Virus genome (UHGV): UHGV-0016284
Direction: 5' to 3' (one strand)
Origin: a virus
Length of the DNA stretch: 55,548 bases
Below are positions 1 to 55,548 of this stretch, one piece after another. Position numbers and translations under genes: made by a program. Position 1 is the first letter of the stretch. Each line of letters starts with the position of its first letter. The notes under the pieces are model-generated. The model saw only the letters and a list, made by a program, of their open reading frames with translations. It was not told the origin of the DNA and made no database searches.

Positions 1-192
1 AAGGTAAAAACATCAGCAGAAAGCGCACAAGATAACACCATAACGAACAACACCTACACCAGCGTTGAAAACAAGGTGGGACAAGGCAGGCCAGTGCCAA
101 TCCTGTTGGGTGAGATGAAAATAGGTTCAAACGTCGGATCGTTAGGCATAGACACAAGCAATAACAAAGACGCCTTAGACGTTGTAAGTTAA
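1..192 (+). CDS. 3' end of upstream tail gene, probably tail assembly protein I-like (partial, start outside window)
   Basis: Open frame from base 1 to TAA at 190-192 (ends ...GEMKIGSNVGSLGIDTSNNKDALDVVS), immediately upstream of the J-like gene as in lambda I-J synteny. Confidence 0.35.
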   Translation, partial: KVKTSAESAQDNTITNNTYTSVENKVGQGRPVPILLGEMKIGSNVGSLGIDTSNNKDALDVVS

Positions 193-205
193 CAGGAGAA
201 AAGCC

Positions 206-3200
206 ATGAGTAGCGGCGGCGGCAAAGCCAAAACACCAACATTATTGAACGATAACCTGTATCATAAACAGTTTTATCGTGTCTTAGATATTCTCAGTGA
301 GGGGCCGATATATGGTCCGGTAAACCAGAAAGCACCACTGAATAACGTGATGCTTAATGACACGCCTGTTACTGACGCAAACGGGAATACATCAATACCG
401 GGGATTAGTATAGCCTGGCGAAACGGCACGGCTGACCAATCGCCGATTAATGGTTTTAATGCCATTGAGTCAACCGTTATTGTCAACGCAAAGGTAACTC
501 ACGACACGCCAATAATCAGGACTGTTTCAGATCCAAACGTTACCCGCGTCAGGTTGAATCTTGGTGTTGACGCTCTCGTTCAGTCAGACGACAAGGGCAA
601 TCAATACAATACATCCGTTATGTTGATGGTTGACGTTAAACCGTCATTATCTTCTACGTGGTCGCTGATTAAAGATATACACATTGGCCCCGGTAAACAA
701 AGCGGTGAATATCTGGAAGCTCACATTATCAAAGCGCCGGATGAAAAACCGTTTGATATTCGCATTCGTCGCATAACAGCAGACAGCAACAGCGATCTAT
801 TGCAGAATGATACGCGGTGGAGTAGTTACAGCGAAATCATAGACGATAATCTGTCTTATCCTCATACCGCTGTAGCTGGCGCTGTGATTGACCATGACCA
901 GTACACTGATACACCTACCCGCACCTATCATCTTCGCGGCCTGATTGTTGACGTGCCTGATAACTACAACACAGAAACGCGCACATATTCGGGCTTATGG
1001 CTTGGTGGATTCAAAAAAGCGTACACCAATAACCCTGCGTGGATTTTCCGGTATCTGGTTAAAAACGAGCGCTTCGGGCTTGCTCGACATGCTGGTTACA
1101 TTGATGTTGATGATGGCGCTTTGTACGTGCTCTCCCAATACTGCGATCAGTTGGTTGATGATGGCTATGGTGGCCTTGAACCTCGCATGACGCTTAACGC
1201 TTACATTACGGAGCAAATGAGCGCCCGCGACCTACTGGATAACATTGCAGGTATGTTCCGTGGTATCGCGTTATGGGACGGGCAACGCCTTACCGTGATG
1301 ATTGATGCGCCACAGGATCCAATTGCCACCATCACAAACGCAAGCGTCGTTGATGGCGCGTTTACTCGCTCAAGTCTTCCGCTTGCAGAGTGTTACAACG
1401 CCGTGATCGTATCATGGACTGACCCGGAAAACGGCTGGGAGCAATCAAAGGAATACGTGGCAGATGATGAACTAATCGCCCGCGATGGTTATAACGAAAC
1501 CACGTTGGAGGCGTTCGGGTGCACGTCACGCGGGCAAGCTCACCGCGCTGGGAAGTGGCTGATAGAAACAGCAAAACGCGAGCCGTCTAAATTCACGTTT
1601 AAAATGGCCCGTGACGCAATTCACTTCACCCCTGGTGATATTATCGAGATACTCGACAATAACCGTGCTGGCGCCCGTCTAGGCGGTCGTATCGTAGCAA
1701 ACAATGGCAGGGTTATCACTGTCGATAAGGTTGATTCTGAATATATCACCCCTGGCGACACCATTAGCCTGCTTGATAGTGACGGCAAATTTAAAAAACA
1801 CCAGATCACCGGAGTTAGCGGAAACAAAATTACCCTTGCATCCGCCCCGGCATGGATTCGTAACGGTACTGTATTTGCTGTATCAACTAACGCAGCAAAA
1901 CCCGTATTGTGTCGAATCACCAGCGTAGCAGAAACAGAAAATAACAGCGTGTACACCATAGAGGCTGCACAGCATGATCCGCACAAACAGGCTGTAGTAG
2001 ATAATGGCGCAATCTTTGAGGTCAACAACGATACGCTTAATCACTTCCGCGTGCCGAACATTGAAAACCTGAAGGTGTTAAACATTGGATCTGAAACAGT
2101 TCAATGCCGCGCAACATGGGAAACACTGACGACAACTCATCGCCTGACCTTTGAAATCCGCGTATACAATTCAGCGGGGGCCGTAGTTAAAAGCTACGAA
2201 ACTACTAATTACAGTTATGATTTTTATGGCATTGATGCGGGAACCTACTCATTAGGCATCCGTGGCAGAAATGACACGGGCATGAAGGGTGCTGAAAGCA
2301 TTGTGGATCTGGTTATTGGCGCACCGGCGGCCCCGGTAGGAGTTAACTGGGTTCCTGGTGTATTTCAGGCTACAGTTTACCCGATCAGCAGAACAACGCT
2401 TACCACTGACACTAGTTATGAGTTTTATTACTCAGGTGAAACACAAATCACCGATCCGGCATCAGTAACCACTAAGGCACAATATACCGGGCGTGGTCAT
2501 CAGTGGACGTTTGGCGGCATGAACACGGGCCACACCTATTACGTTTACGTGCGCACACGCAATGCTTTTGGCGTGTCTGACTTTGTAGAGGCGTCAGGTA
2601 AGCCGACAGAGAATTTTGATGAAATCAGTGACTACGTGATGAAGGATGTCATGGGGTCGGAACAGTTCAAGGAAATGATTGGTGACATCAAAGATCTAGG
2701 CGACCGCACCGATGTTATCGAAGGTGTTGCGGAAGAACTGAAAACAGCTACTGACAACCTCAAAACTACAACTGATAACCTTACGAACGTAACTGACGAT
2801 TTAAGGACTGAAACAGACAACCTTACCAGCATAACCGACGATTTGAGGACCGAAACAGACAACCTTACTAACATAACTGAAGATTTAAGGACTGACACTG
2901 ACAACCTGATCACAGAAACGGGAACAATAAAAGCTGACACCGATACACTTAAAAAAGAAACGGAAGATCTTTACAAAAAAGTTAAGGAAAACGCCGATGA
3001 TATTGGTCAGCATGAGTCCAGGATTGACCTATTAGAAGTGTCCAGCGAAAAAGTTGGCAGCGAACTGGCGCAAGCAAAAGCAAGCCTGCAAAACGCGTCA
3101 TTGGCGCTTATCAACAACTCGCTTGCACAGACAAACACGCGCGTTACCCTTACCGCCCAGTACAAAAAAGGCAGAACGGAAACGAAAGCGGAAATTGACC

Positions 3201-5950
3201 GTATTGACAACGTTATCGCTGAAGAGAAAAAAGCAACGGCTGAATCACTGAAAACCATCACGGCAGAAATGAACACGATGGATTCCAACCTTAAAGGTCA
3301 GATCTCCAGTGTGGAACGCGCAGTGGCTGACGAGGCTAGTGCCCGCGCTGAAGCTATTAACGGTGTGAACGCCTCAATAAGCAATCTCGACAAGAAAACG
3401 GATGCCAGCGTCAATAGGCTTGATCAGGCTATTGCAGATGAAACGAACGCCCGCACACAGGCGGTCAGTGACGTTAACGCAAGTATCTCGGTACTTGATA
3501 AGAAAACTGACGCCAGCGTTAAACGCCTGGATCAGGCAATCGCTGACGAAACCAGCGCAAGAACCGAAGCTATCAGTGGCGTGAACGCATCAATTTCAAC
3601 GCTTGATAGCAAAGTGGAAAGCAATATAACGCGCATAGATAAAGCTATTGCAGATGAAACGCAGGCGCGTACAGACGCAATAAGCGGCGTCAAAGCGAGC
3701 ATTAACACACTTGAAGGCAACACCAATTCAGAAGTTAAACGTCTGGATCAGGCAATCGCTGACGAGGCCAGTGCCCGCACACAGGCGGTCAGTGATGTAA
3801 AAGCATCAGTAAGCAACCTTGAAAGCAAAACTGACGCCAGCGTTAAACGCCTGGATAAAGCTATTGCAGACGAAACAAGCGCACGCAGCGAAGCTATTAG
3901 TGGGGTAAATGCCTCAGTATCAGCGCTCGACAAGAAAACCGATTCAAGCATAAGCCGCCTTGATAAAGCCATTGCGGATGAAACAAGCGCGAGAACCGAA
4001 GCCATCAACGGTGTGAATGCGTCAATTTCCACACTCGACGGCAAGGTTACAAGTAACGTTAGCCGCCTTGATAAAGCGATTGCAGACGAAACTAAGGCAC
4101 GCACTGACGCCATCAGCAGCGTTAATGCAAGTATCAGTACGCTTGAAAGCAACACTGAATCAGAAGTAAGTAGACTCGACCAGGCAATCGCTGACGAGGC
4201 CAGTGCCCGCGCACAGGCCGTTAGCGGCGTGAAGGCATCAATAGACAGCCTTGATAAGAAAACAGATGCCAGCGTTTCCCGCCTTGACAAAGCAATATCA
4301 GACGAAACGAAGGCAAGAAGCGACGCAATAACAGAGGTTAAAGCAGACTTAACAACGCTTGAGAACAGCACAAACGCCAGCGTTAAGCGTCTTGATCAGG
4401 CAATTGCCGATGAATCAAGCGCCCGCGCTCAGGCAATATCAGGCCTCAGCGCAAATCTTGGCACTGTTGAAAATAATGTTGGCAAAAACAGCGACGAAAT
4501 AAATCAGGCAAAAGCAAGCCTGCAAAACGCATCTATTGCACTTATCAATAACTCAATCGCTCAAACCAACACGCGTGTTACTCTTTCAGCCCAATACAAG
4601 AAAGGAATCAGAGAAACCAACGCGAAAATTGACCGTATTGACAACGTTATCGCTGAAGAGAAAAAAGCAACGGCTGAAGCCATTAGCGGTGTAAACGCAT
4701 CGATCACTAATCTTGATAAGAAGACTGAAGCAAGCGTAAACCGTCTTGATCAGGCAATTGCTGACGAAACAAGCGCCAGAGGACAAGCTATCAGCGAAGT
4801 TAGCGCAAGTGTCAGCACGCTTGATAATAAAGTGACAAGCAACGTCACCAGGATGGACAAAGCCATCGCCGACGAAAAAAAAGCACGCGCGGACGCAATA
4901 AGCGGCCTTAGCGCATCGCTTACCAGTACGATCAACTCAAAAGTATCTGAAGTGTCGACGGCGCTCTCTACGCATGAGGAATCAAGCGCGGAAAAATTTA
5001 GCCAGATCTCAGCGTCTTTCGAATCAGTAAACTCAAGTATTACAGAATGGTCGCAGACAATGGCTACGGCAGACGAGGCGTTGTCAACGAAAATTGATCA
5101 GCTAACAGTGACCGTTAACGGGAACAAGACGGCAATAGAGACGACATCTAAAGCGTTAACCGACTTTAGGGGTAATGTTGATGCGACATATTCAATCAAG
5201 CTCGCCACAGATAGCAATGGCGTAAAATACGCTACAGGTATGTCGCTTGGCCTTACTGGTGACGGCACTAACTTTCAGTCGCAGTGTATTTTCCTTGTTG
5301 ATCGCTTTATGTTAATGACGGCGGCAAACGGCGCATATACATCGCCCTTCTATGTCACTAACGGCGCAATGTATGTGAAAGAGGCATTTATTAAGGATGC
5401 ATCAATAGGGACAGCTAAAATTGCAGATGCCTCCATTACTATGGCTAAAATTGTCAATGAAATTAAATCAGCAAACTTCGTCCCCGGTTCCAATGGTTGG
5501 AGGATAACACAAAGCGGCGCATCAGAATTTAACAACGTTGTTGTAAGGGGTGAAATACATGCAGACAGCGGCAAGTTTACCGGTTCACTTGAGGCGAAAA
5601 CCTTTATCGGTGATGTTGCAAACATGTACACAGGTTCTGACGTTAGCACGTTAAGGGATGGTGAACTAGAAAAAGTAATAACATACAATGACACATCTGA
5701 CGCAGCGCATAGCCGACATATCTGCGTTATGGCTAACGTTAAGGGTTTTGGTGGTTGCACAATAACAATTGGCGGTTCATCAAAAGGTTTAGCACTGGAT
5801 GGCACGGAGCGCCTTGTTATGCATTCAGCAGCAGTAACCAGCAGGGGCGTTACAGTTAAAATTAAGGTATCTGCTCAAAATGACAAGGGGGCTTATATAA
5901 ATTCGCCGACAGTCATAGTGTCGCGCGGTTCTGGTTCATTCTCAGGATAA
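206..5950 (+). CDS. J: host-specificity / central tail fibre protein, lambda J-like, with inserted coiled-coil repeat stalk
   Basis: N-terminal ~800 aa align by eye with lambda J (TPTLLNDNLYHKQFYRVLDILSEGPIYGPV; FDIRIRRITADSNSDLLQNDTRWSSYSEIID; YCDQLVDDGYGGLEPRMTLNAY; FGCTSRGQAHRAGKWLIET). C-terminal ~350 aa also J-like. Between them lies a ~650-aa Ala/Asp/Glu-rich repeat region absent from lambda J. Confidence 0.9.
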   Translation: MSSGGGKAKTPTLLNDNLYHKQFYRVLDILSEGPIYGPVNQKAPLNNVMLNDTPVTDANGNTSIPGISIAWRNGTADQSPINGFNAIESTVIVNAKVTHDTPIIRTVSDPNVTRVRLNLGVDALVQSDDKGNQYNTSVMLMVDVKPSLSSTWSLIKDIHIGPGKQSGEYLEAHIIKAPDEKPFDIRIRRITADSNSDLLQNDTRWSSYSEIIDDNLSYPHTAVAGAVIDHDQYTDTPTRTYHLRGLIVDVPDNYNTETRTYSGLWLGGFKKAYTNNPAWIFRYLVKNERFGLARHAGYIDVDDGALYVLSQYCDQLVDDGYGGLEPRMTLNAYITEQMSARDLLDNIAGMFRGIALWDGQRLTVMIDAPQDPIATITNASVVDGAFTRSSLPLAECYNAVIVSWTDPENGWEQSKEYVADDELIARDGYNETTLEAFGCTSRGQAHRAGKWLIETAKREPSKFTFKMARDAIHFTPGDIIEILDNNRAGARLGGRIVANNGRVITVDKVDSEYITPGDTISLLDSDGKFKKHQITGVSGNKITLASAPAWIRNGTVFAVSTNAAKPVLCRITSVAETENNSVYTIEAAQHDPHKQAVVDNGAIFEVNNDTLNHFRVPNIENLKVLNIGSETVQCRATWETLTTTHRLTFEIRVYNSAGAVVKSYETTNYSYDFYGIDAGTYSLGIRGRNDTGMKGAESIVDLVIGAPAAPVGVNWVPGVFQATVYPISRTTLTTDTSYEFYYSGETQITDPASVTTKAQYTGRGHQWTFGGMNTGHTYYVYVRTRNAFGVSDFVEASGKPTENFDEISDYVMKDVMGSEQFKEMIGDIKDLGDRTDVIEGVAEELKTATDNLKTTTDNLTNVTDDLRTETDNLTSITDDLRTETDNLTNITEDLRTDTDNLITETGTIKADTDTLKKETEDLYKKVKENADDIGQHESRIDLLEVSSEKVGSELAQAKASLQNASLALINNSLAQTNTRVTLTAQYKKGRTETKAEIDRIDNVIAEEKKATAESLKTITAEMNTMDSNLKGQISSVERAVADEASARAEAINGVNASISNLDKKTDASVNRLDQAIADETNARTQAVSDVNASISVLDKKTDASVKRLDQAIADETSARTEAISGVNASISTLDSKVESNITRIDKAIADETQARTDAISGVKASINTLEGNTNSEVKRLDQAIADEASARTQAVSDVKASVSNLESKTDASVKRLDKAIADETSARSEAISGVNASVSALDKKTDSSISRLDKAIADETSARTEAINGVNASISTLDGKVTSNVSRLDKAIADETKARTDAISSVNASISTLESNTESEVSRLDQAIADEASARAQAVSGVKASIDSLDKKTDASVSRLDKAISDETKARSDAITEVKADLTTLENSTNASVKRLDQAIADESSARAQAISGLSANLGTVENNVGKNSDEINQAKASLQNASIALINNSIAQTNTRVTLSAQYKKGIRETNAKIDRIDNVIAEEKKATAEAISGVNASITNLDKKTEASVNRLDQAIADETSARGQAISEVSASVSTLDNKVTSNVTRMDKAIADEKKARADAISGLSASLTSTINSKVSEVSTALSTHEESSAEKFSQISASFESVNSSITEWSQTMATADEALSTKIDQLTVTVNGNKTAIETTSKALTDFRGNVDATYSIKLATDSNGVKYATGMSLGLTGDGTNFQSQCIFLVDRFMLMTAANGAYTSPFYVTNGAMYVKEAFIKDASIGTAKIADASITMAKIVNEIKSANFVPGSNGWRITQSGASEFNNVVVRGEIHADSGKFTGSLEAKTFIGDVANMYTGSDVSTLRDGELEKVITYNDTSDAAHSRHICVMANVKGFGGCTITIGGSSKGLALDGTERLVMHSAAVTSRGVTVKIKVSAQNDKGAYINSPTVIVSRGSGSFSG
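2745..2960 (+). repeat. short in-frame tandem repeats (about 30-40 bp units) encoding TDNLxxTTDDLRTETDNLT motifs inside J
   Basis: Repeated peptide TDDLRTETDNLT(S/N)IT and matching DNA units (actgacgatttaaggactgaaacagacaacctta...). The antisense ORF 2632..2940 is a by-product of this periodicity. Confidence 0.6.
3194..3244 (+). repeat. 51-bp perfect direct repeat, copy 1 (within J)
   Basis: attgaccgtattgacaacgttatcgctgaagagaaaaaagcaacggctgaa is identical at 3194-3244 and 4628-4678. An additional 23-bp identity (gcaaaagcaagcctgcaaaacgc) lies about 125 bp upstream of each copy. Confidence 0.85.
3310..4450 (+). repeat. about ten tandem 108-bp (36-aa) coding repeats, predicted coiled-coil stalk of J
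   Basis: Protein repeat KKTDASV(K/N)RLDQAIADETSARTEAISGVNASIS(T/N)LD recurs about 10 times with a 36-residue period. Boundaries approximate. Confidence 0.8.
4628..4678 (+). repeat. 51-bp perfect direct repeat, copy 2 (within J)
   Basis: Identical to 3194-3244. Spacing 1434 bp = 478 codons, so recombination between copies would be in frame. Confidence 0.85.
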
Positions 5951-6339: not shown

Positions 6340-6373
6340 AGAAAATGCAACACAGATCACAAAATGGTAGAAT
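6340..6373 (+). promoter_or_regulatory. candidate extended -10 promoter for the side tail fibre gene
   Basis: TGgTAGAAT at 6365-6373 (TGn plus near-consensus -10); AT-rich upstream; GGAG ribosome-binding site before the ATG at 6407. Confidence 0.3.
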
Positions 6374-6406
6374 TATTCCGTTAATTAACAAAATGGAGTC
6401 ATCGAG

Positions 6407-14142: not shown

Positions 14143-15558
14143 TTAAAAAGATGTGTTATTCTGATTGTTTCGTTGGTTAAAACGGCTTGTGCGATGATTC
14201 ATTGACTGAATACACGCGGCGGCTGCGCGAGCCTGGTCGCATGGCAAGATATTACCGTTGTCATCAAACCGCTGGTAAACAGTTCCAGACTTACCATGAC
14301 GGTTTTTGGACACAATGATTTCCATATATTCGCGGGCAACAGACTGTTCGTCGTAATACCCATCGCGGTAAACCATGATGATCCTGTCGGCATCTTGCTC
14401 AAGGTTGCCAGAATCACGAAGATCAGAATTGTTAGGGCGCTTGTTCGGTCGTTCCTCAACGCGGCGTGACAGTTGCGCCAGCGCCAACACTGGTACACGC
14501 AATTCTTTCGCCATCATCTTTAACGACCACGACAATTGCCCAACGGCGAGATCGTGACGTTCGGCCTTAGCCAGCTGCATTAAGCCGATATAGTCAATCA
14601 TTACCATACCCAAATTTGGGTGATCCTGTTTCATGCGTTCCGTTGTTGCGCGTATTTCCTCAACCGTTAACTGCGACGCGTCAACGATCCACACATCAAG
14701 GTTAGCAAGTGCGCTCATACCCTGGCCGACATGCGCCCACCCTTCATCATCAAGTTTTACCGGATTGCGCAGGCAGTCAGTTGATAAATTACCAGCGCCA
14801 GCGATAGCTCGCTCAGTCATCTGATCGAGTGACATTTCAAGAGTGAAGAACAAAACGCCAACCCGCTGATCTTTACTGCCAGGGTAAGGGCGTTCAGCGG
14901 CAGCGCGGGCAATTGTCAGCGCCAACGCAGATTTACCAGACCCAGGGCGTCCGGCGAGAAGTACCAAATCAGTAGCGTTAATGCCGCCTAACATTTCATC
15001 GAGCGGGTCAATACCTGTTTTGATGTTGTCAGAATTAACACCGCATTCCATGCGCTTGCTTAAAACATCCGTATATTCCTGTACCGCATCGCGCAACAAC
15101 ACCGGAATGATCTTGTCTTTCGTTACCTTTAATTTTGAATATCGGGAATCAAAATCCTTCATCGTCTCTTTGACGACCTCAAGCGTACCTGTTTCCAGCT
15201 TGTAACGCATATCGTCGATGAGTTCCAACATCTGCCGCCGCTGGTGCTCTTCACGTAGTAGCTGTGCGTATCCCTTCAGGTTGGCAGCAGACGGGCACGA
15301 TCGCGCCGTTTGCATTAGCGGTACAAAGTTTTCATTGCCAATCTCATCGCCAACCAATAACGCGTCGATAAGATTTCTGTTTCTGGCTTGCGCCCGGATA
15401 ACTTCAAACGCACGTTTATACAGCGGAATCGTGAACACTTCAGGATCAAGCGTGGCGAGAACATCTTGCGCGTTAGGAGTAAGGCCACCCAACAACAGCC
15501 CGCCGATAACTGACGCCTCACGTTCCTGCCGTAGTGAGTTTATTTGCTCAGTTACCAT
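14143..15558 (-). CDS. replicative DNA helicase, DnaB family
   Basis: Walker A GRPGSGKSALALTIA, DnaB-like N-terminal domain, RecA-fold C-terminal half (VMIDYIGLMQ; LAQLSRRVEERPNKRP). Confidence 0.85.
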   Translation of the reverse strand: MVTEQINSLRQEREASVIGGLLLGGLTPNAQDVLATLDPEVFTIPLYKRAFEVIRAQARNRNLIDALLVGDEIGNENFVPLMQTARSCPSAANLKGYAQLLREEHQRRQMLELIDDMRYKLETGTLEVVKETMKDFDSRYSKLKVTKDKIIPVLLRDAVQEYTDVLSKRMECGVNSDNIKTGIDPLDEMLGGINATDLVLLAGRPGSGKSALALTIARAAAERPYPGSKDQRVGVLFFTLEMSLDQMTERAIAGAGNLSTDCLRNPVKLDDEGWAHVGQGMSALANLDVWIVDASQLTVEEIRATTERMKQDHPNLGMVMIDYIGLMQLAKAERHDLAVGQLSWSLKMMAKELRVPVLALAQLSRRVEERPNKRPNNSDLRDSGNLEQDADRIIMVYRDGYYDEQSVAREYMEIIVSKNRHGKSGTVYQRFDDNGNILPCDQARAAAACIQSMNHRTSRFNQRNNQNNTSF

Positions 15559-21163: not shown

Positions 21164-21380
21164 TCTTGTGTCTCCTATGGTTAGAGTGAACGCGCGGGCG
21201 GGCATCCCATTAGCATTAGATAGCAGTGACTGACCGCTCAACAGATCCCGCCGTTGCGTGATATTTGTTTTTCGCTTCGCAGCGACACCGGATTTTTAAA
21301 GAGCTTAAGTGGTTGGCCTTTTGTGCTTTCCGTTATCTTTTTTCTTGCATCATTGCAACTATGGCCTTACCTTGTTTGCA

Positions 21381-21467: not shown

Positions 21468-22115
21468 ATGAAAACAAAATGGTATGACTTAGCAAAACAA
21501 CTCATGCGGGCGCAGGGCATGAGCCAGGATTCATTGGCTGATCTCATGGGGATAACCAAAGGTGGCCTTTCGCACTGGCTGAACGGTCGCCGTGAGCCAA
21601 ATCTTGAAGATATTGCGCGGATTATGCGGGCGCTTGGGCGTCGGCAGTTTACTGTCACACATGACGGGATGGTTATCGATGATTCTGTTTCTAACACTTT
21701 ACCGGGAGCGCCACCGCGTGATTTAGGCAGTTACCCGGTTGTTGACTGGAAGGATGTAGCAAACAATATGGAAGGCATACGCCGATCAACATTGCCACAT
21801 GTTACTACTAACGTTATTTGTTCGGATGATAGTTATTGGCTGGTAGCTAAAGGTGAATCAATGAACGCACCGCAGGGGTTAAGCATCCCTGCCGGTACTA
21901 TGATACTTATTGACCCGCACGCGCCAGCTATTGATGGTAAACTGGTTATAGCTCAACTCGAAGAAGGGCAAATACCGACGTTTAAACAATTGATTATTGA
22001 TGGAGGCCGAAAACTTTTGCGTTCACTGAATCCGTTGTATCCGCCGATCCCTATGAATCCAGAATCAAAAATCATTGGCGTGGTTGTTGATGCGAAGATC
22101 GTAAACCTGCCATAA
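21468..22115 (+). CDS. cI-like repressor (HTH_XRE N-terminus, LexA/S24 autopeptidase C-terminus)
   Basis: N-terminal HTH (MSQDSLADLMGITKGGLSHWLNGRREP); C-terminal S24 fold with GESM (Ser nucleophile) and downstream Lys (TFKQL). Confidence 0.8.
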   Translation: MKTKWYDLAKQLMRAQGMSQDSLADLMGITKGGLSHWLNGRREPNLEDIARIMRALGRRQFTVTHDGMVIDDSVSNTLPGAPPRDLGSYPVVDWKDVANNMEGIRRSTLPHVTTNVICSDDSYWLVAKGESMNAPQGLSIPAGTMILIDPHAPAIDGKLVIAQLEEGQIPTFKQLIIDGGRKLLRSLNPLYPPIPMNPESKIIGVVVDAKIVNLP

Positions 22116-22148: not shown

Positions 22149-22239
22149 CGAAAAAACACCAAAACGTAAACAGAAAACGCTATTTATTGTTTAAATATCA
22201 ATAGTATATAAAATATTTTAAAAAAGTATACAAAATGGA

Positions 22240-22268
22240 TTGACTCGGTGTTTTACGGGGCGTATATT
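22240..22268 (+). promoter_or_regulatory. strong sigma70-type promoter for the rightward operon
   Basis: TTGACT (22240-22245), 17-bp spacer, TATATT (22263-22268). Confidence 0.55.
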
Positions 22269-22312
22269 GCGAGTCAAAGGAGGTAGCAAGGCAGGGAAAG
22301 GGAAGGTTATTT

Positions 22313-22349
22313 GCTCTTTAACAATCTGGTCAGCCGCTGGAAGTGCGGC
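22313..22349 (+). promoter_or_regulatory. nut-like site: boxA-like sequence plus boxB-like hairpin
   Basis: GCTCTTTAA (22313-22321) resembles boxA (CGCTCTTA); hairpin GCCGC-tggaagt-GCGGC at 22333-22349 resembles boxB. Confidence 0.35.
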
Positions 22350-49191: not shown

Positions 49192-49551
49192 TTAGTTGAA
49201 ATACGCATCAACTCTGTGGGCCACGTTTACACCATAAGACTCGCCATCATTAAACGCATTTAGTGACGCTTTATTGTTTTTTGCCGCCTCTTTTAATCCA
49301 TTGTACTTGCTATTAAGATCTTTCCATTCAGCGGTTTTTTCTAATACTGGCTTCATTGCGTAATGAATACAGCCAACGTTAAATGGCATTTCCAGATCAC
49401 CATTACCGTCACCATGCTTTATATCGTACAACTGAGCATTATGCGCACATTCACGAAGTATGTATTTTGCGGACGGAGAGTGCTCAGCATTAGCATTAAG
49501 CGCAACTCCTGCAAGTACCGCCACGATTAAGATTTTTGCCAGACTTTTCAT
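49192..49551 (-). CDS. secreted/periplasmic protein (Sec signal peptide), antisense moron
   Basis: MKSLAKILIVAVLAGVALNANA then EHSP...: classic signal peptide with AxA cleavage site; mature ~97 aa with 2 Cys; GGGGTGA ribosome-binding site. Confidence 0.6.
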   Translation of the reverse strand: MKSLAKILIVAVLAGVALNANAEHSPSAKYILRECAHNAQLYDIKHGDGNGDLEMPFNVGCIHYAMKPVLEKTAEWKDLNSKYNGLKEAAKNNKASLNAFNDGESYGVNVAHRVDAYFN

Positions 49552-49729: not shown

Positions 49730-49800
49730 TTTATACAAAATGTGTTCACTGAAGTAAATCCATTTTGTATAAAATAGAGGCATAGATCACATTTTGTATG
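49730..49800. promoter_or_regulatory. inverted/direct repeat cluster and candidate minus-strand promoter upstream of the moron (and of the tape measure gene)
   Basis: ATACAAAATGT (49733-49743), CCATTTTGTAT (49760-49770), ACATTTTGTAT (49788-49798). Minus-strand TTTACT-17-TATAAA promoter (complement of 49753-49758 and 49730-49735). Confidence 0.4.
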
Positions 49801-49810
49801 AGGTTAAATC

Positions 49811-52800
49811 ATGTCAACAAATTTAGGCACAATTTATTACGAGGTTGATGCAAAAACGGGTCAGCTTCTGACTGTTCAGCGCGAGGTAGATCGCGCAACT
49901 GGCAAAATGGAAAAGGATTTGGAGCGCGTGGATAGTGCCGCCACTCAGGCAAGTAAGTCACTGTCAAAGCTATCCTCGATTGCCAGTGCCCTGGGTGCTG
50001 CAATGGCAGCAAAAAAAATCATTGAGTATGCAAACGCCTGGCAGGAGGTGAATAACAGGCTAATCAATAGCGTTCGTGCTGGTGAATCACTGGCAGACGT
50101 TAATCAGCGTGTATTTCAGATCGCGCAAAATTCACGAAGCGATCTTGATGCTACAGCAGATCTTTACGGTAAATTAGAGCGCTCGACGCGCGACGCTGGT
50201 TTATCGACGAAAGCACTTGGTGATATGGTTGAAACCATTAACAAAACATTCCGCATTTCTGGCGCTTCTGCCGCTGAAGCAGAAGGCGGGATCCGTCAGT
50301 TGGGTCAATCCCTCGCCAAAGGTGTTTTGAATGGCGATGAATTTAACTCCGTTACAGAAAACGCCACCAGGCTGTCAGAGGGTTTGGCTAAATCACTGGG
50401 CGTATCGTCAGCGGAAATGCGCAAGATGGCAGCAGAAGGGAAAATCACCCGTGAAGCTATCATTAAAGCCCTTAAGGAAATGAAAGCGGAGGTTGATGCT
50501 GAGTTTTCTAAACTCACCCCAACTATGCAGGAGGCTTTCACTGTTGCAGGCAACAACGCAGCTAAATTTTTCGGCAGCAATTCGTCAATTATGGGCGGGA
50601 TTGGTGCTTTTAATTCGGCAGTTGTAACCCTGTCAGAAAACCTTAACGAAATAGCTACTGCATTTATTGGCATTGCCACTGTGATGGGTGGCAGAGTGGT
50701 AAATAAATTCGTAGCTGCAACAGCAGAGGTATTAACTAACGCTCAGGCGACCAGGGCACAAACGGCAGCGGCACGGCAGGCCGCTCAGAGTGAATTGGCG
50801 CTAGCTAACGCTCAGGTGGTATCAGCACGGCAATCAGTAGCGGCGGCGGCGGCAAGGTTGAGAGAGGCGCAGGCTTATGCTGCGGCAAATGCCGGAACAA
50901 AATTCGAAGTTCAGACACTGAAAGAATTGGCTGTAGCCAAAGCACAGAACACAGCGGCATCAAACGCCCTTACTGCGGCAGAGCAGCGCCTTGCTGCGGC
51001 CCACACTGCGGCGGCGGCTAATGCAGGGCTACTAAAAACAGCGTTTAGCGCTACTCTGGGTGCGATTGGTGGTATCCCTGGCGCGTTAATGCTTGCTGTT
51101 TACGGGTTGACAGCATATGTAGATCACGTAGATCAAACGGCAGAGGCAAACCGCAACCTTGCCGATTCAGTGGACGTTAGTACCGAATCACTGGAACGAA
51201 TGAGTAAGGCGGCTAAGCTGGCTGGTGCAGATAAACTACAAATATCAATGGGTCAGTTAGAGGAAGACGTTGCCAGTCTCAACAAACAGATTGACCAGGA
51301 CACGCAGGCGCTGGAACTGAATAAACAGGCACTGGAGAAAGCAGAGGAGGGGTCACGCGCTTACGCCAACCTATCGAAAGCTAATCAGGAAATCACAGCC
51401 CGCCTGACCAGGGAAGAGGCGCAGCGTGAGGATATTCTCGACCGCCTTAATCAAATGCAGCGCAAATATATTCTGCTTATGCAGGATACAGATCCGCTAA
51501 TGAAGACCGTTGCCACTTCATTGGGGTTGGTAGCGGATGCATACGGAAGAATCACCACAGAAGCAGAACGCGCAGCAGCAGCAACGCAACACGCTTCAGC
51601 AGCACTTAACGCAGATCAGCAAGAATTAATGAATCTGGCAAACCGCCGCCTGGAGCTGGCAAAACTCGACTCCAAAACAGCCAGCAGGGAAAAGGCGATT
51701 GATGGGTTTAAGCGTGAGGCTGAGAAAGCAAACCTGACCGGGGAAGCGTATGAAAAATACATGGCTACAATGACCAAAGCATACGACACCGAGCAGAAAC
51801 GCGCCGAAGCTGAAAGAAAGGCCAGTCATGGGAAAAAAACTGGCGAAAGCGAGGAGAAAAAACATCTAAAAGAGGCTGAACGCCTGCGCAAAGAGCTTGA
51901 GAAACGGGGCCAGAATGTTGCAGATAAATACAATGTAGAAGCCGCCGCGCAACGGAAATTAAAAGAGGATCAGGATGCGCTAAATGCAGCATTAAAAAGC
52001 GGCAAAATAAGCGCGGAACAATATAATAAGGCATGGAAAGAATTAATTGGAACCGAGGAACAACGCAAACGTCAGGCTAGCTGGGATAATCTGGTAAACA
52101 AAGAGCTACAACTACGCGGGCAACTAGACCCAATTCAGCAGGCGATGAATGAATGGGCGGTTCGCAAGCAGATGCTCACAGATTTAGGCGCTACAGAGCA
52201 ATATATGAGGGAGCAAGAAAAAGCGCATGAGAGGGAAATGCTATCACTTCAGTGGGAGAGGTATAAGGCGCAGTCATTGACCAACCAACTGTTAGGCGAT
52301 GCTGTTGATGCAATGAGCGGATCCGCAACTAACGCGCTTGTCGGCCTGATTAACGGTACTCAAAATTGGCAACAGGCGATCGCTAACATTGGCAATACAA
52401 TCCTTTCCTCCGTGATTGGTACGATTGTTCAAATGGGTACTGAGTGGGTCAAGCAGCAATTGATTGGTGATACAGCAAGAACTATGGCAACAGCTAAAGC
52501 AATGGGCGAGGCGGTGGCGTTAAGTTCTGCATGGTCAACCCCAGCCTACCTGGCAAGCGTGGCAACAATGGGCGGCGCAGCGACGGCGGGGTCAGCGGCG
52601 ATAGCAACCGGATTGGCTGGAGCAAAAGCGCTTGGCCTGGCTGGCGCTCGTTATAACGGCGGTGCGGTTAATGGTGGTAGCCTGTATCGCGTAGGGGAAC
52701 ACGGTAAGCCAGAGATCTTCCAATCTCGAAACGGTGAACAGTATATGATTCCTGGTGACAACGGCAGGGTAATACCAAATCGCGACATTGGTGGTGCGGG

Positions 52801-52966
52801 TGGTGGTAACGTTAGTATAAACGCACCGATTAGCGTTTACCCACAAAATGGATGGAGTGATGAGGACGCCAAAAAACTACAGCAGGATATGGAAAAGATC
52901 TGCATGGGCCTGATACACCGCGAATCATCCAGACCGGGCGGAATGCTGCAACCGCGCCGCAAATAA
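49811..52966 (+). CDS. tail tape measure protein
   Basis: 1051 aa, long Ala/Gln/Glu-rich coiled coil, Gly-rich C-terminal region; canonical position. Confidence 0.85.
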   Translation: MSTNLGTIYYEVDAKTGQLLTVQREVDRATGKMEKDLERVDSAATQASKSLSKLSSIASALGAAMAAKKIIEYANAWQEVNNRLINSVRAGESLADVNQRVFQIAQNSRSDLDATADLYGKLERSTRDAGLSTKALGDMVETINKTFRISGASAAEAEGGIRQLGQSLAKGVLNGDEFNSVTENATRLSEGLAKSLGVSSAEMRKMAAEGKITREAIIKALKEMKAEVDAEFSKLTPTMQEAFTVAGNNAAKFFGSNSSIMGGIGAFNSAVVTLSENLNEIATAFIGIATVMGGRVVNKFVAATAEVLTNAQATRAQTAAARQAAQSELALANAQVVSARQSVAAAAARLREAQAYAAANAGTKFEVQTLKELAVAKAQNTAASNALTAAEQRLAAAHTAAAANAGLLKTAFSATLGAIGGIPGALMLAVYGLTAYVDHVDQTAEANRNLADSVDVSTESLERMSKAAKLAGADKLQISMGQLEEDVASLNKQIDQDTQALELNKQALEKAEEGSRAYANLSKANQEITARLTREEAQREDILDRLNQMQRKYILLMQDTDPLMKTVATSLGLVADAYGRITTEAERAAAATQHASAALNADQQELMNLANRRLELAKLDSKTASREKAIDGFKREAEKANLTGEAYEKYMATMTKAYDTEQKRAEAERKASHGKKTGESEEKKHLKEAERLRKELEKRGQNVADKYNVEAAAQRKLKEDQDALNAALKSGKISAEQYNKAWKELIGTEEQRKRQASWDNLVNKELQLRGQLDPIQQAMNEWAVRKQMLTDLGATEQYMREQEKAHEREMLSLQWERYKAQSLTNQLLGDAVDAMSGSATNALVGLINGTQNWQQAIANIGNTILSSVIGTIVQMGTEWVKQQLIGDTARTMATAKAMGEAVALSSAWSTPAYLASVATMGGAATAGSAAIATGLAGAKALGLAGARYNGGAVNGGSLYRVGEHGKPEIFQSRNGEQYMIPGDNGRVIPNRDIGGAGGGNVSINAPISVYPQNGWSDEDAKKLQQDMEKICMGLIHRESSRPGGMLQPRRK

Positions 52967-52972
52967 TCAAAA

Positions 52973-53000
52973 CCCCGGCGCAATGCCGGGGTTATTTTTA
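52973..53000. terminator. rho-independent terminator after tape measure (probably bidirectional)
   Basis: Hairpin ccccggc-gcaat-gccgggg followed by ttattttta; same stem as the terminator at 46148. Confidence 0.7.
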
Positions 53001-53177
53001 TTCAATTTCATCATTTTTAAATTCGCCGTTTGCATAAAGCTGTAATGCGCTTATCAGTTCGTCAGCTTGCTTTTTGTCTATTACAATCATCTCGCAGTCG
53101 CTAACGATCCATAATCTTCCATCATCTTCAACACTAAGATCAATCCTTCTACATTCTTCAGTCTCGTGAATAATCAT
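52998..53177 (-). CDS. small protein (59 aa), antisense cassette gene 4
   Basis: MIIHETEECRRIDLSVEDDGRLWIVSDCEMIVIDKKQADELISALQLYANGEFKNDEIE; GAAGG ribosome-binding site. Confidence 0.4.
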   Translation of the reverse strand: MIIHETEECRRIDLSVEDDGRLWIVSDCEMIVIDKKQADELISALQLYANGEFKNDEIE

Positions 53178-53215
53178 TATAAACCTTCATCATGTTATTG
53201 ATTTCGTGAATAAAT

Positions 53216-53386
53216 TTACTCAAATCTTGTATATCCTCTTTCAATTTTCCCTCCGTGTACACTTCTGGCAAATACCGCGTCAGTATACCTGAAAAATGGG
53301 CATGTATATGTATCCCCTTTGCTATCCATATATTTTAGCACCCACGCTATGCGTTTTACGTTGCTTTTATTTGCCGGGTTTTTCAT
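53216..53386 (-). CDS. small protein (56 aa), antisense cassette gene 3
   Basis: MKNPANKSNVKRIAWVLKYMDSKGDTYTCPFFRYTDAVFARSVHGGKIERGYTRFE; GGAGGA ribosome-binding site before ATG 53386. Confidence 0.4.
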   Translation of the reverse strand: MKNPANKSNVKRIAWVLKYMDSKGDTYTCPFFRYTDAVFARSVHGGKIERGYTRFE

Positions 53387-53417
53387 TTTGTTTTCCTCCG
53401 CAACATTCAAATCCGTG

Positions 53418-53672
53418 TCACTTGTGAGCGCCTTTCACCCCACAGTGCCTGTTATATTCCAGGTGGTCAATAATTAACCACATCTTTAAATCTTCGCTGA
53501 ATAACCGCCAATCGGGGTTAATATCAAATTTATAACCGTAGCCATCGCGTAATTTTTTGGGGGTGGCCTCTTTTCTCAGGAAAGCATTTAATAAAGCCTT
53601 GCCCTTTTTGATGATCCGGTCCTGTGCGTTTTTCTGTGCTTTCAGATTTTTACCAATCGCTACCAATTTCAT
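53418..53672 (-). CDS. small protein (84 aa) with weak RelE/YafQ-like toxin resemblance, antisense cassette gene 2
   Basis: ...KKLRDGYGYKFDINPDWRLFSEDLKMWLIIDHLEYNRH: PDW-containing segment resembles YafQ (KGYRDAHVEPDWILIYKL). Unverified. Confidence 0.4.
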   Translation of the reverse strand: MKLVAIGKNLKAQKNAQDRIIKKGKALLNAFLRKEATPKKLRDGYGYKFDINPDWRLFSEDLKMWLIIDHLEYNRHCGVKGAHK

Positions 53673-53690
53673 AACACACCCCACAATCCA

Positions 53691-53846
53691 TTAGTTGACC
53701 ACTTTCAGGAAGAAATCACGGTATTCATCTTCTTTTGCATTCATCATGAATTGACCGTATTTGAATGCGTCATCAAAGCCTTTAACTATCGCCACTTCCA
53801 CCTGTTCGAATGCGTTGTTCAGCATCACAACCACATAGCGTTCCAT
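53691..53846 (-). CDS. small protein (51 aa), antisense cassette gene 1
   Basis: MERYVVVMLNNAFEQVEVAIVKGFDDAFKYGQFMMNAKEDEYRDFFLKVVN; GGGGGGAGGGG ribosome-binding site before ATG 53846. Confidence 0.4.
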   Translation of the reverse strand: MERYVVVMLNNAFEQVEVAIVKGFDDAFKYGQFMMNAKEDEYRDFFLKVVN

Positions 53847-54019
53847 ATTGCCCCTCCCCCCTTGTCGGTACTGCTTTTTCTTCTTGCTTACTATATACAT
53901 CTTGTCACGCCTTATGTGAAGCCATTTTGTAAACTGGTTATAATTCTTGTGATGAATTTCTCATTTTTCGCGTAGAAGCGCGTAAAGATGTATGCAATAT
54001 GTAACTTATAGGGGGAATC

Positions 54020-54373
54020 ATGCCAGAAGTTTTCAGATGGACGCCGCAAAGAAGCTACAGCGTGACCAGGGAACCAAATGTGTCTGTCGTTAAACTTGGT
54101 GATGGTTATGAACAGCGCCAGGCGAAAGGGATTAACACGTTGCTTGATAGTTATACCCTGGTTTTCAAAGGCAGTAGCGCGGGATGTGGTGATGGTGGAA
54201 ACGTGGCGATCCAGGCTGAAGCATTTTTGAGGGCGCGCGGCGCTGTCGATGCTTTCTACTGGACGCCTTCGATGGATGGGGTGCAAAGGCTTTTCGTTTG
54301 CCGTAGCTGGAGCATGACCAAAGACGGGCCTGTGTACACGCTAAACGCAACGTTTGAACAAGTTGTTGGCTAA
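54020..54373 (+). CDS. M: minor tail protein M (lambda M-like)
   Basis: Aligns by eye with lambda M along its length (FRWTPQ.....V.....V.KL.GDGYEQRQAKGIN..L.SYTLVF........EAFL...G....FYWTP.......F.C..WS.........ATFEQVV). Confidence 0.8.
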   Translation: MPEVFRWTPQRSYSVTREPNVSVVKLGDGYEQRQAKGINTLLDSYTLVFKGSSAGCGDGGNVAIQAEAFLRARGAVDAFYWTPSMDGVQRLFVCRSWSMTKDGPVYTLNATFEQVVG

Positions 54374-54570
54374 TGGGGGTTGTTATGTACGGGACTTGTG
54401 TAGTTGACAAAACTTACGCTTTTACATTGTTTGACGACTATGAGATCAACGACCTTACTGTAAAAGCTGACAACGGCGATATATGGTATCTTCACGACGT
54501 TGGTGATGGGTACGTGGGGTGTAGATCCCGGGAAGGGAAGGAGGTTTTATTTTTGGTTGATGGCGTATAA
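54373..54570 (+). CDS. small hypothetical protein (61-65 aa) after M
   Basis: ORF overlapping the M stop; likelier start is ATG 54385 (GGGGG ribosome-binding site). Not L-like. Confidence 0.4.
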   Translation: MGVVMYGTCVVDKTYAFTLFDDYEINDLTVKADNGDIWYLHDVGDGYVGCRSREGKEVLFLVDGV

Positions 54571-54575
54571 ACACG

Positions 54576-54604
54576 ACCCCGCGCGAAGCGGGGTTATTAT
54601 TATT
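54576..54604. terminator. bidirectional hairpin terminator
   Basis: ccccgc-gcgaa-gcgggg followed by ttattattatt; the stem is the reverse complement of the one at 5958. Confidence 0.6.
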
Positions 54605-54716
54605 CCATTTCCATTAATGCTATATTTTCTGCTATCGTTTTCCAGTCCAGATCTACAGCATGAACGCCAAATACTATCAATCCCATTATTATTAGCGCCA
54701 AAACTTCTATTTTCAT
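54600..54716 (-). CDS. hydrophobic minipeptide (38 aa)
   Basis: MKIEVLALIIMGLIVFGVHAVDLDWKTIAENIALMEME; GGTGA ribosome-binding site. Confidence 0.35.
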   Translation of the reverse strand: MKIEVLALIIMGLIVFGVHAVDLDWKTIAENIALMEME

Positions 54717-54726
54717 AATCTGTCAC

Positions 54727-54975
54727 CTATAAGTTATCACGCAGATAATTAACGCCCTTATCAGTGACGAATGAATGGTTAACCTGGTTTTCATCCGTCA
54801 TGATGATGAATAACTTTTCCTGTAGGTATTTCGCTTTCGGGTACAGCGTTAAACAGACCTGGTACAGTATCCCGCGCTCAATCAGCAAATCAATAAATTC
54901 GTGCTCATGATAACCGACGAGGCGGGCGGCCTGTTTCAACGTGTACACATAGTCACCGTGATTGCTCCGCCCCAT
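54727..54975 (-). CDS. hypothetical protein (82 aa), possible DNA-binding
   Basis: YTLKQAARLVGYHEHEFIDLLIERGIL looks HTH-like. Tentative. Confidence 0.4.
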   Translation of the reverse strand: MGRSNHGDYVYTLKQAARLVGYHEHEFIDLLIERGILYQVCLTLYPKAKYLQEKLFIIMTDENQVNHSFVTDKGVNYLRDNL

Positions 54976-54984
54976 ATTACCGCC

Positions 54985-55335
54985 TTATTTATCGAAGGCT
55001 GAAAGATTATCAATACAGAAGTCTTTAGCCGCTTTTTCGTATTCGCGTTTTGCTTCTGGATCGTCAGCCGGGAAACCTTTTGCGTGTATTTCACCAGGGC
55101 AAGACTGATCCATAGAGTCTGCAAATTCAACATTGACGTTAAAGTTAATATCTTTCGGGTTCATCTCTTCCACCTTATCCGGTACTTGGACCGGAGTAAT
55201 GTCAAATTCACGAGCGCTAGACCAACAGCGCAGTAATTCACGACCTTCATCACGCGCGGCGTTGTATGTATCGAATAACCCCATGCGCTCCCATTCGCAT
55301 TTATCAGTGAACACTTCTAAGCTGTATTTTTGCAT
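54985..55335 (-). CDS. hypothetical protein (116 aa)
   Basis: Antisense ORF overlapping the upstream gene end. Confidence 0.45.
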   Translation of the reverse strand: MQKYSLEVFTDKCEWERMGLFDTYNAARDEGRELLRCWSSAREFDITPVQVPDKVEEMNPKDINFNVNVEFADSMDQSCPGEIHAKGFPADDPEAKREYEKAAKDFCIDNLSAFDK

Positions 55336-55507
55336 TTTTTGTTATAACCTCCCATTTGGCAGGTTCGATCCTGTATCCCAAAACGCGGTCATCTTCAGCA
55401 AGTAAAAGCGCGTCAGTTAGTGCCTCGCCTTCGTCTTTATACAGAGCTACAGTCATTTCCCTGCCGCCTGACAGGAATACCGTCAACCTCCACACCTTAT
55501 CAGCCAT
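55304..55507 (-). CDS. hypothetical protein (67 aa)
   Basis: GGAGGTG ribosome-binding site before ATG 55507 (track start 55525); the cassette may continue beyond the window end. Confidence 0.4.
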   Translation of the reverse strand: MADKVWRLTVFLSGGREMTVALYKDEGEALTDALLLAEDDRVLGYRIEPAKWEVITKNAKIQLRSVH

Positions 55508-55548
55508 CTCACACCTCCGCGCCATTTTGTTAACCCTGCTTCCTTTTG

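Follow-up and report, generated by a model that had tools for sequence, protein, structure and literature searches.

This study focused on four small antisense genes, gA, gB, gC and gD in the order of their reading, that lie in the tail-gene block of the viral genome UHGV-0016284, a stretch of 55,548 nucleotides that was analysed whole and is referred to here as the window (Table 1). The second gene, gB, specifies a protein of the family PF24732 that is predicted by structural modelling to belong, as a divergent member, to the RelE/ParE toxin superfamily. Together with the gene directly upstream, gA, it makes up a conserved core, and the explanation tentatively favoured here, to which we give somewhat less than an even chance, is that the two form a toxin-inhibitor pair in which a RelE-like nuclease of PF24732 is the toxin, with the timing of its action uncertain. 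The window represents a mEp021-like (mEpimmI) temperate coliphage; the region studied matched mEp010, mEp044, mEp515, mEp013, mEp554, mEp021 and MagusPhagus at 86–96% identity, and the window's CI-type repressor (HTH_3 plus Peptidase_S24 domains) was 96% identical to Rep021. The phage group was named 'mEpimmI' in 2025 and its members were reported to be common in the human gut (PMC11893012), in a paper that does not discuss gA, gB, gC or gD. The region also matched prophages in 35 of 5,426 complete Escherichia coli genomes.

The gB protein matched the Pfam profile PF24732 at 43.6 bits (cut-off 24.4, E = 3e-11), with residues 23–79 aligned to profile positions 2–67 of 67, and every gB homologue that was found carries the same domain. 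By this match it is a full-length member of a family that, like its name, already exists in Pfam and RefSeq, the latter labelling gB a 'ParE family toxin-like protein'; it also matched phrog_1525. Searches of the PDB with the gB sequence and with two gB-family profiles found no toxin, so the relationship to toxins is visible by fold comparison only. A first structural model, built on 22 sequences of at least 64% identity, was unusable (predicted local distance difference test score, pLDDT, 51). For the second, distant members were added by tblastn, which gave hits in jumbo phages and Sortsnevirus, followed by a seed alignment and a profile search, giving an alignment of 42 sequences and a model with pLDDT 88.5, a predicted template modelling (TM) score of 0.76 and the topology β-β-α-β-β-β-α. 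Its best matches in the viral structure library BFVD were 'ParE-like toxin domain' proteins of fHe-Yen9-04 and RaK2 (TM 0.74–0.85). The model shows the fold that defines the RelE/ParE superfamily, a small α/β domain with an antiparallel sheet of 3–4 strands on one or more N-terminal helices, and the fold assignment is sound; the N-terminus is atypical, with a β-hairpin and one helix instead of two helices, and the structural similarity is modest. Within the superfamily, the modelled fold is nearest to the ribosome-dependent mRNA endonucleases YafQ, HigB, RelE and YoeB, making the RNase branch the nearer one. The initial annotation had noticed a RelE/YafQ-type resemblance in the second gene and had proposed structure prediction as a check, and both the above-threshold family match and the model bear it out.

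Across the 42 family members, which extend down to about 20% identity, residues K40, R56, H70 and N74 were invariant and G44 and Y73 nearly so. In local hhalign alignments of the gB profile with single sequences, none of which was significant, R56 stood opposite R65 of YoeB, and a PDW segment stood opposite P66-D67-W68 of YafQ. The PDW segment had been singled out earlier as a sign of a toxin of this type; the local correspondence to YafQ was recovered, and it serves, like that to YoeB, as no more than a hint at which residues correspond. From their conservation, K40, R56, H70 and Y73/N74 are putative catalytic residues.

The arrangement of gA and gB is that of a type II module, in which small genes lie adjacent, co-directional and close together in one unit: the stop of gA at 53691 and the start of gB at 53672 leave a gap of 18 nt, and the genes have a common promoter and terminator. 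The two proteins are oppositely charged (gA -3.5, gB +9.8). In the prophage of E. coli 2-331 the gap between the tape measure gene and gene M holds gA and gB alone, which indicates that the pair is a sufficient unit that can stand by itself. In some prophages gB is frameshifted or truncated, and gA is intact there. Along with the invariant K40, R56, H70 and N74 and the local alignment of R56 with R65 of YoeB, the points counted for a toxin-inhibitor pair are the opposite charges, the 18 nt spacing, the stand-alone pair of E. coli 2-331, the promoter-like site and terminator, the purifying selection and co-occurrence described below, and this decay of gB beside an intact gA.

Selection was assessed against nine relatives by the ratio of non-synonymous to synonymous change (pN/pS), which was 0.02–0.24 for gA and 0.06–0.32 for gB; the values for gC (0–0.16) and gD (0.25–0.87) have low power, being based on few differences. 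For gC, five comparisons gave 22 synonymous against 6 non-synonymous differences. The ratios indicate that all four open reading frames (ORFs) are under purifying selection and are real genes; a spurious-ORF reading was dismissed on the excess of synonymous changes in gA to gD. Each ORF is preceded by a purine-rich Shine-Dalgarno sequence (GGGGGGAGGGG for gA, GGGG for gB, GGAGG for gC and AGGT for gD). Gene callers often extend gA to 68–69 codons, from an ATG at 53900 or from one within ACAAAATGG, and the start kept in all relatives is that of the 51-aa protein behind the G-rich ribosome-binding site.

Comparison with related phages and prophages revealed a mosaic. In 31 of the 35 E. coli prophages, gB, gA, the intergenic region and M aligned at 94% coverage or more; of the other four, one (UMNK88) had no gA and three departed from this solely in the 3' end of gB. 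Both gA and gB were annotated or aligned at every phage locus examined (mEp010, mEp515, mEp021 and MagusPhagus). The distal part varies more freely, with two unrelated genes at this place in mEp021, gD missing from both mEp021 and E. coli 2-331, gC seen only in mEp-group phages, and gC and gD assorting independently among relatives. In mEp515 an HNH endonuclease gene lies within the antisense operon (4751–5257 of the mEp515 locus), just 3' of a strongly diverged gB (64% identical), which suggests homing-endonuclease traffic at the locus. From these alignments the unit is a conserved two-gene core, gA and gB, with a variable tail, gC and gD. The four minus-strand genes reported by the initial annotation are indeed present, occupying the 1,053-base gap that separates the tape measure gene from M, and its account of an antisense unit with its own ribosome-binding sites stands, given a Shine-Dalgarno sequence for each ORF, a promoter-like site and a bidirectional terminator. 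Its description of an inserted four-gene cassette is better replaced by that of a core and tail, because gA, gB and the promoter are kept throughout, save for the missing gA of UMNK88, and gC and gD alone vary.

The two distal genes gave few leads. The gD protein matched phrog_13627 (E = 4.9e-9), a family of unknown function, and tblastn returned weak hits only, in unrelated phages; gC had no family match at a meaningful E-value in Pfam, phrog, NCBIfam or PADLOC. A reversed, HigBA-like arrangement with gB as toxin and gC as antitoxin was ruled out, since gC is basic and is missing from many gB-bearing relatives, and gC-gD as a second pair was ruled out by their independent assortment.

Several findings weigh against a toxin-inhibitor pair. 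The partner gA showed no match in Pfam, NCBIfam, PADLOC or the PDB and no recognisable antitoxin or DNA-binding domain, phrog_29810 being its sole family match. No homologue was found outside the phage lineage, with 1.84 billion representative proteins yielding 5 clusters, all at least 71% identical. A weak match to CagT (E = 0.02, 17 residues) was dismissed as chance, and gA resembled neither the product (51 aa) of the gene that opens the next antisense slot in the tail module nor the upstream neighbours of PF24732 genes elsewhere. An intact toxin is never expected without its antitoxin in a type II module, and this rule is broken at three loci. The UMNK88 prophage lacks gA and has an intact gB with every invariant residue, placed directly behind the conserved leader and ribosome-binding site, and a second copy of gA was not detected in the UMNK88 genome; gA is frameshifted at codon 5 in MFDS1019527 and its start is changed from ATG to ACG in PRO_A, with gB intact in both. 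The divergence of the two genes is also uncorrelated, since mEp515 shares 94% identity with the window in gA and 64% in gB, and N1286 shares 76% and 95%, respectively. None of the four proteins matched PADLOC-DB 2.0 (0 families at E up to 1), and no relative of gB was found on 72,556 plasmids. The proposal of a candidate toxin-antitoxin or defence locus was thus upheld in one part, the toxin fold of gB, but not in the others, there being no antitoxin domain in gA, an intact gB where gA is deleted or damaged, and no PADLOC match.

A further point on the same side is that the PF24732 genes of Sortsnevirus, jumbo phages and integrative and conjugative elements (ICEs) have unrelated upstream genes. 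In Sortsnevirus this is a gene for a 115–125-aa protein that overlaps the PF24732 gene by 4 nt, just before the lysis genes; in jumbo phages it specifies a protein of 118–131 aa; and in ICEs it encodes DUF2857, known as BisC, a subunit of the transfer-competence activator of ICEclc (PMC7423338). In E. coli and Providencia ICEs the PF24732 gene (3001–3285 and 3001–3294 of the respective loci) overlaps the end of the BisC-like gene, in a backbone that runs DnaB, ParB-like, BisC and then, further on, AcaB and TopA, and 324 blocks of the sequence collection list the same E. coli protein. The phage members in BFVD share the predicted fold of gB. The mEp subgroup differs from the members of jumbo phages, Sortsnevirus and ICEs (20–36% identity) and has gA as its own upstream partner. 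No experimental study of PF24732, and no paper mentioning it, was found in the literature.

The intergenic region bears on when the operon might be expressed. Its 173 bp were conserved to the same degree as the flanking genes (74–100% identical in ten relatives), and the ACAAAATGG, TTCACA and GATGTATA blocks of the operon promoter-like site were nearly invariant there. In background sequence, the chance of a promoter match of at least 9/12 was 0.005. The site was missed by a consensus scan because its -10 hexamer ends in A, and was recognised by comparison with a promoter at 22230 (ACAAAATGG-A-TTGACT-N17-TATATT, 10/12) that has the same architecture and lies just downstream of the repressor gene. 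Position 22230 is followed by a boxA consensus, GCTCTTTAACAA (22313), and a boxB-like hairpin, GCCGC-TGGAAGT-GCGGC, and these features together with the adjacent repressor gene identify the stretch 22230–22346 as nutR preceded by PR, the early promoter. On the opposite strand, a boxA-like copy at 21287–21304 resembles nutL. The upstream/-35 part of PR is the 16-mer ACAAAATGGATTGACT; a second copy, ACAAAATGGTATGACT (21474–21489), is found just ahead of the start codon of the Rep021-type gene and lacks a -10 element, which suggests a protein-binding site rather than a promoter. Since the operon promoter shares this 16-bp upstream/-35 element with PR, expression of gA and gB could be early-lytic rather than lysogenic. 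If the 16-mer is an operator for Rep, the operon would be off in lysogens and would fire early; if it is an UP-like element, the operon may be expressed constitutively. The choice decides between an early effector and a lysogen-expressed accessory unit, the two views set out next to the favoured one below.

A promoter-like region containing a short motif had been pointed out in the initial annotation. The motif, CCATTTTGT, is the reverse complement of ACAAAATGG and is enriched in the window (13 copies against 0.8 expected), one copy falling at 53922..53930 in the conserved intergenic region, in agreement with that claim. At three of the 13 exact copies, a promoter match of at least 9/12 follows at the same offset. 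Besides the operon and PR, this architecture is seen at 49768 (9/12), pointing toward an antisense gene whose product has 119 aa; its mirror image at 49735 faces the tape measure gene. The 44-bp near-palindrome spanning both (49730–49773, TTTATACAAAATGTGTTCACTGAAGTAAATCCATTTTGTATAAA) consists of two overlapping divergent promoter-like sites, each -10 beside the ACAAAATG element of the other. Exact copies of CCATTTTGT/ACAAAATGG without a promoter lie at 6359, 6388, 15579, 29287, 29351, 42259, 46189, 52843 and 55522, of which those at 6388, 46189 and 55522 overlap start codons or Shine-Dalgarno sequences and that at 52843 is within the tape measure gene. No single explanation fits them all. At the distal end of the operon, the bidirectional terminator serves both the tape measure gene and the antisense genes, and one is annotated at the same place in mEp515 and mEp010; an Rfam scan gave sub-threshold hits only, on this hairpin.

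The antisense genes make up a self-contained operon within the tail-gene block, with its own sigma-70-type promoter-like site, a bidirectional terminator, the gA-gB core and the swappable gC and gD. In the favoured explanation, the gB protein would bind the ribosome or mRNA and cut mRNA during translation by way of K40, R56, H70 and Y73/N74, while acidic gA, translated just upstream on the same transcript, would bind gB and restrain it. The pair would be type II-like, with a new kind of antitoxin, and may act at infection or induction, for host shut-off or exclusion, rather than as an addiction or defence module expressed in the lysogen.

A somewhat unlikely alternative is that gB acts as an early lytic effector with no true antitoxin, a phage RNase or translation inhibitor deployed at infection or induction for host shut-off, exclusion or counter-defence and later silenced by opposing Q-antiterminated late transcription, leaving gA a separate role or that of a timing tuner. 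It accords with the pattern ACAAAATGG-N-TTxACx-N17-TATAxx that is common to the operon promoter and PR, the latter followed by its boxA/boxB nut site, and with the operator suggested by the non-promoter 16-mer just upstream of the repressor start. The family is, moreover, found in Sortsnevirus and jumbo phages, which need not spare their host, and in an ICE operon that works solely in cells competent for transfer, gA and gB are core to the lineage rather than sporadic, and the gA-less prophage of UMNK88 is viable. Yet the timing is read from sequence alone, the 16-mer could be an UP-like promoter element, and the RNase activity of gB is putative, while the tight layout of gA and gB, their opposite charges and their near-universal co-occurrence have the look of a toxin and its inhibitor. 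A wider proposal, which we regard as rather unlikely, makes PF24732 a separate functional branch of the RelE fold, comprising 'active-phase' RNases that temperate and virulent phages and ICEs would produce on switching to propagation and that would need no classical antitoxin; a repressor-bound 16-bp operator common to PR, together with head-on late shut-off, would govern the gene in mEp021-like phages, with gA as a modulator of new, lineage-specific fold.

The initial annotation viewed the cassette as an accessory locus (moron) expressed in the lysogen, that is, a type II toxin-antitoxin or abortive infection system, constitutive in the prophage, that stabilises the prophage or protects the lysogen. 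Its antisense position in a late operon with its own promoter-like site and terminator, the toxin fold of gB, an upstream partner that is small and acidic, as type II modules typically have, and the moron-like genes of neighbouring antisense slots (one for a protein with a signal peptide, one for a protein with a KilAC antirepressor domain) all fit such a locus. We nevertheless consider it unlikely, as gA and gB are a fixed and not a variable part of the lineage, PADLOC gave no match, the promoter is similar to PR, a promoter that has to be silent in lysogens, and the intact gB of UMNK88, where gA is missing, sits poorly with a toxin made by the lysogen. The tolerance of gB in that prophage could also mean that the protein is no longer toxic and has become an RNA- or ribosome-binding regulator or adaptor, with gA and gB sharing a non-toxic developmental role, as would agree with its modest structural similarity and atypical N-terminus and with a family that has no known antitoxin in every context examined. 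This is judged the least probable of the explanations, with only a slight chance of being correct, since the invariant K, R, H and N/Y of very divergent members suggest a conserved active or binding site, and gB has decayed in several prophages.

Comparison with known systems shows where a toxin-inhibitor pair of this kind would stand. Compared with YafQ, RelE, YoeB and HigB, gB has no significant sequence similarity and differs in its N-terminal β-hairpin and single helix, and its partner gA is not DinJ-, RelB-, YefM- or HigA-like. The ParE gyrase poisons (ParDE, PaaA2-ParE2) have the same superfamily fold as gB, and PaaA2 provides a precedent for a short antitoxin with no DNA-binding domain. 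The antisense unit resembles late-operon phage morons, such as lambda bor and lom and those of HK97-type tail regions, in its own promoter (here a promoter-like site) and terminator, its embedding in a late operon and its variable distal content, but differs from them in that gA, gB and the promoter are kept in nearly all members of the lineage.

If gA and gB are a working toxin-inhibitor pair, gA would represent a family of antitoxins that is new and has no detectable relatives, and PF24732, at present just a Pfam and RefSeq label, would gain experimental grounding as a branch of the RelE/ParE superfamily. If gB instead acts lytically with no antitoxin, phages and ICEs would be using RelE-fold nucleases offensively, and the 'orphan toxins' of phage genomes would be read differently. 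The 16-bp promoter/operator-like element gives a handle on how accessory genes are wired into the regulatory circuit of a little-studied phage group. Experiments could be worthwhile on two subjects, the orphan gA and the restriction of PF24732, with no antitoxin, to phages and ICEs, and mEpimmI phages grow on E. coli K-12, which makes experiments easy.

Table 1. Positions in the window of the antisense operon, its control elements and the flanking tail genes.
Feature	Position	Strand	Description
Tape measure gene	49811..52966	+	1,051-aa ORF; same product annotated in relatives; left boundary
Bidirectional intrinsic terminator	52971..52993	.	G+C-rich hairpin, 9-10 bp stem with 7 G-C pairs, T-run on both strands
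gD	52998..53177	-	59 aa, very acidic, isoelectric point (pI) 4.25; variable cargo
gC	53216..53386	-	56 aa, basic, pI 9.8; variable cargo, often without a Prokaryotic Genome Annotation Pipeline (PGAP) call
gB	53418..53672	-	84 aa, basic, pI 9.95; PF24732 'ParE_like', predicted RelE/ParE-superfamily fold
gA	53691..53846	-	51 aa, acidic, pI 4.6; lineage-restricted orphan, candidate partner or inhibitor of gB
Operon promoter-like site	53892..53930	-	ACAAAATGG-C-TTCACA-N17-TATATA; 9/12 consensus positions
Imperfect 16-bp palindrome	53922..53937	.	CCATTTTGTAAACTGG; 6/8 half-site positions symmetric; includes the motif of the initial annotation
TATAAT facing gene M	53939..53944	+	Invariant in all 11 sequences; no recognisable -35
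M-type minor tail protein gene	54020..54373	+	PF05939 Phage_min_tail, E = 1.9e-29; right boundary

The tail module holds three antisense slots, gA to gD being one, and the other two (49192..49551 and about 54600..55525, both on the minus strand) are also kept in relatives. The first of these encodes the 119-aa protein mentioned above, which has a signal-peptide-like N-terminus (MKSLAKILIVAVLAGVALNANA), and the second holds several small genes in a row, one of them for an 82-aa protein with a KilAC antirepressor domain (PF03374, E = 1.3e-6). Directly after gene M is a forward ORF of 65 codons (54373–54570, plus strand) that has no family match; its counterparts in relatives are annotated as hypothetical protein (for example, mEp021_70) and are followed by a bidirectional terminator. 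The window ends (55548) within the third slot, short of the tail genes L, K and I that come next in relatives, and a 1,914-aa ORF lies near its start (1–5950), so that its ends do not simply close into a circular genome like that of mEp021. In the early region of mEp021, a further gene, mEp021_23 (15105–15377 of the mEp021 locus), is annotated as a 'putative toxin-antitoxin system subunit'.

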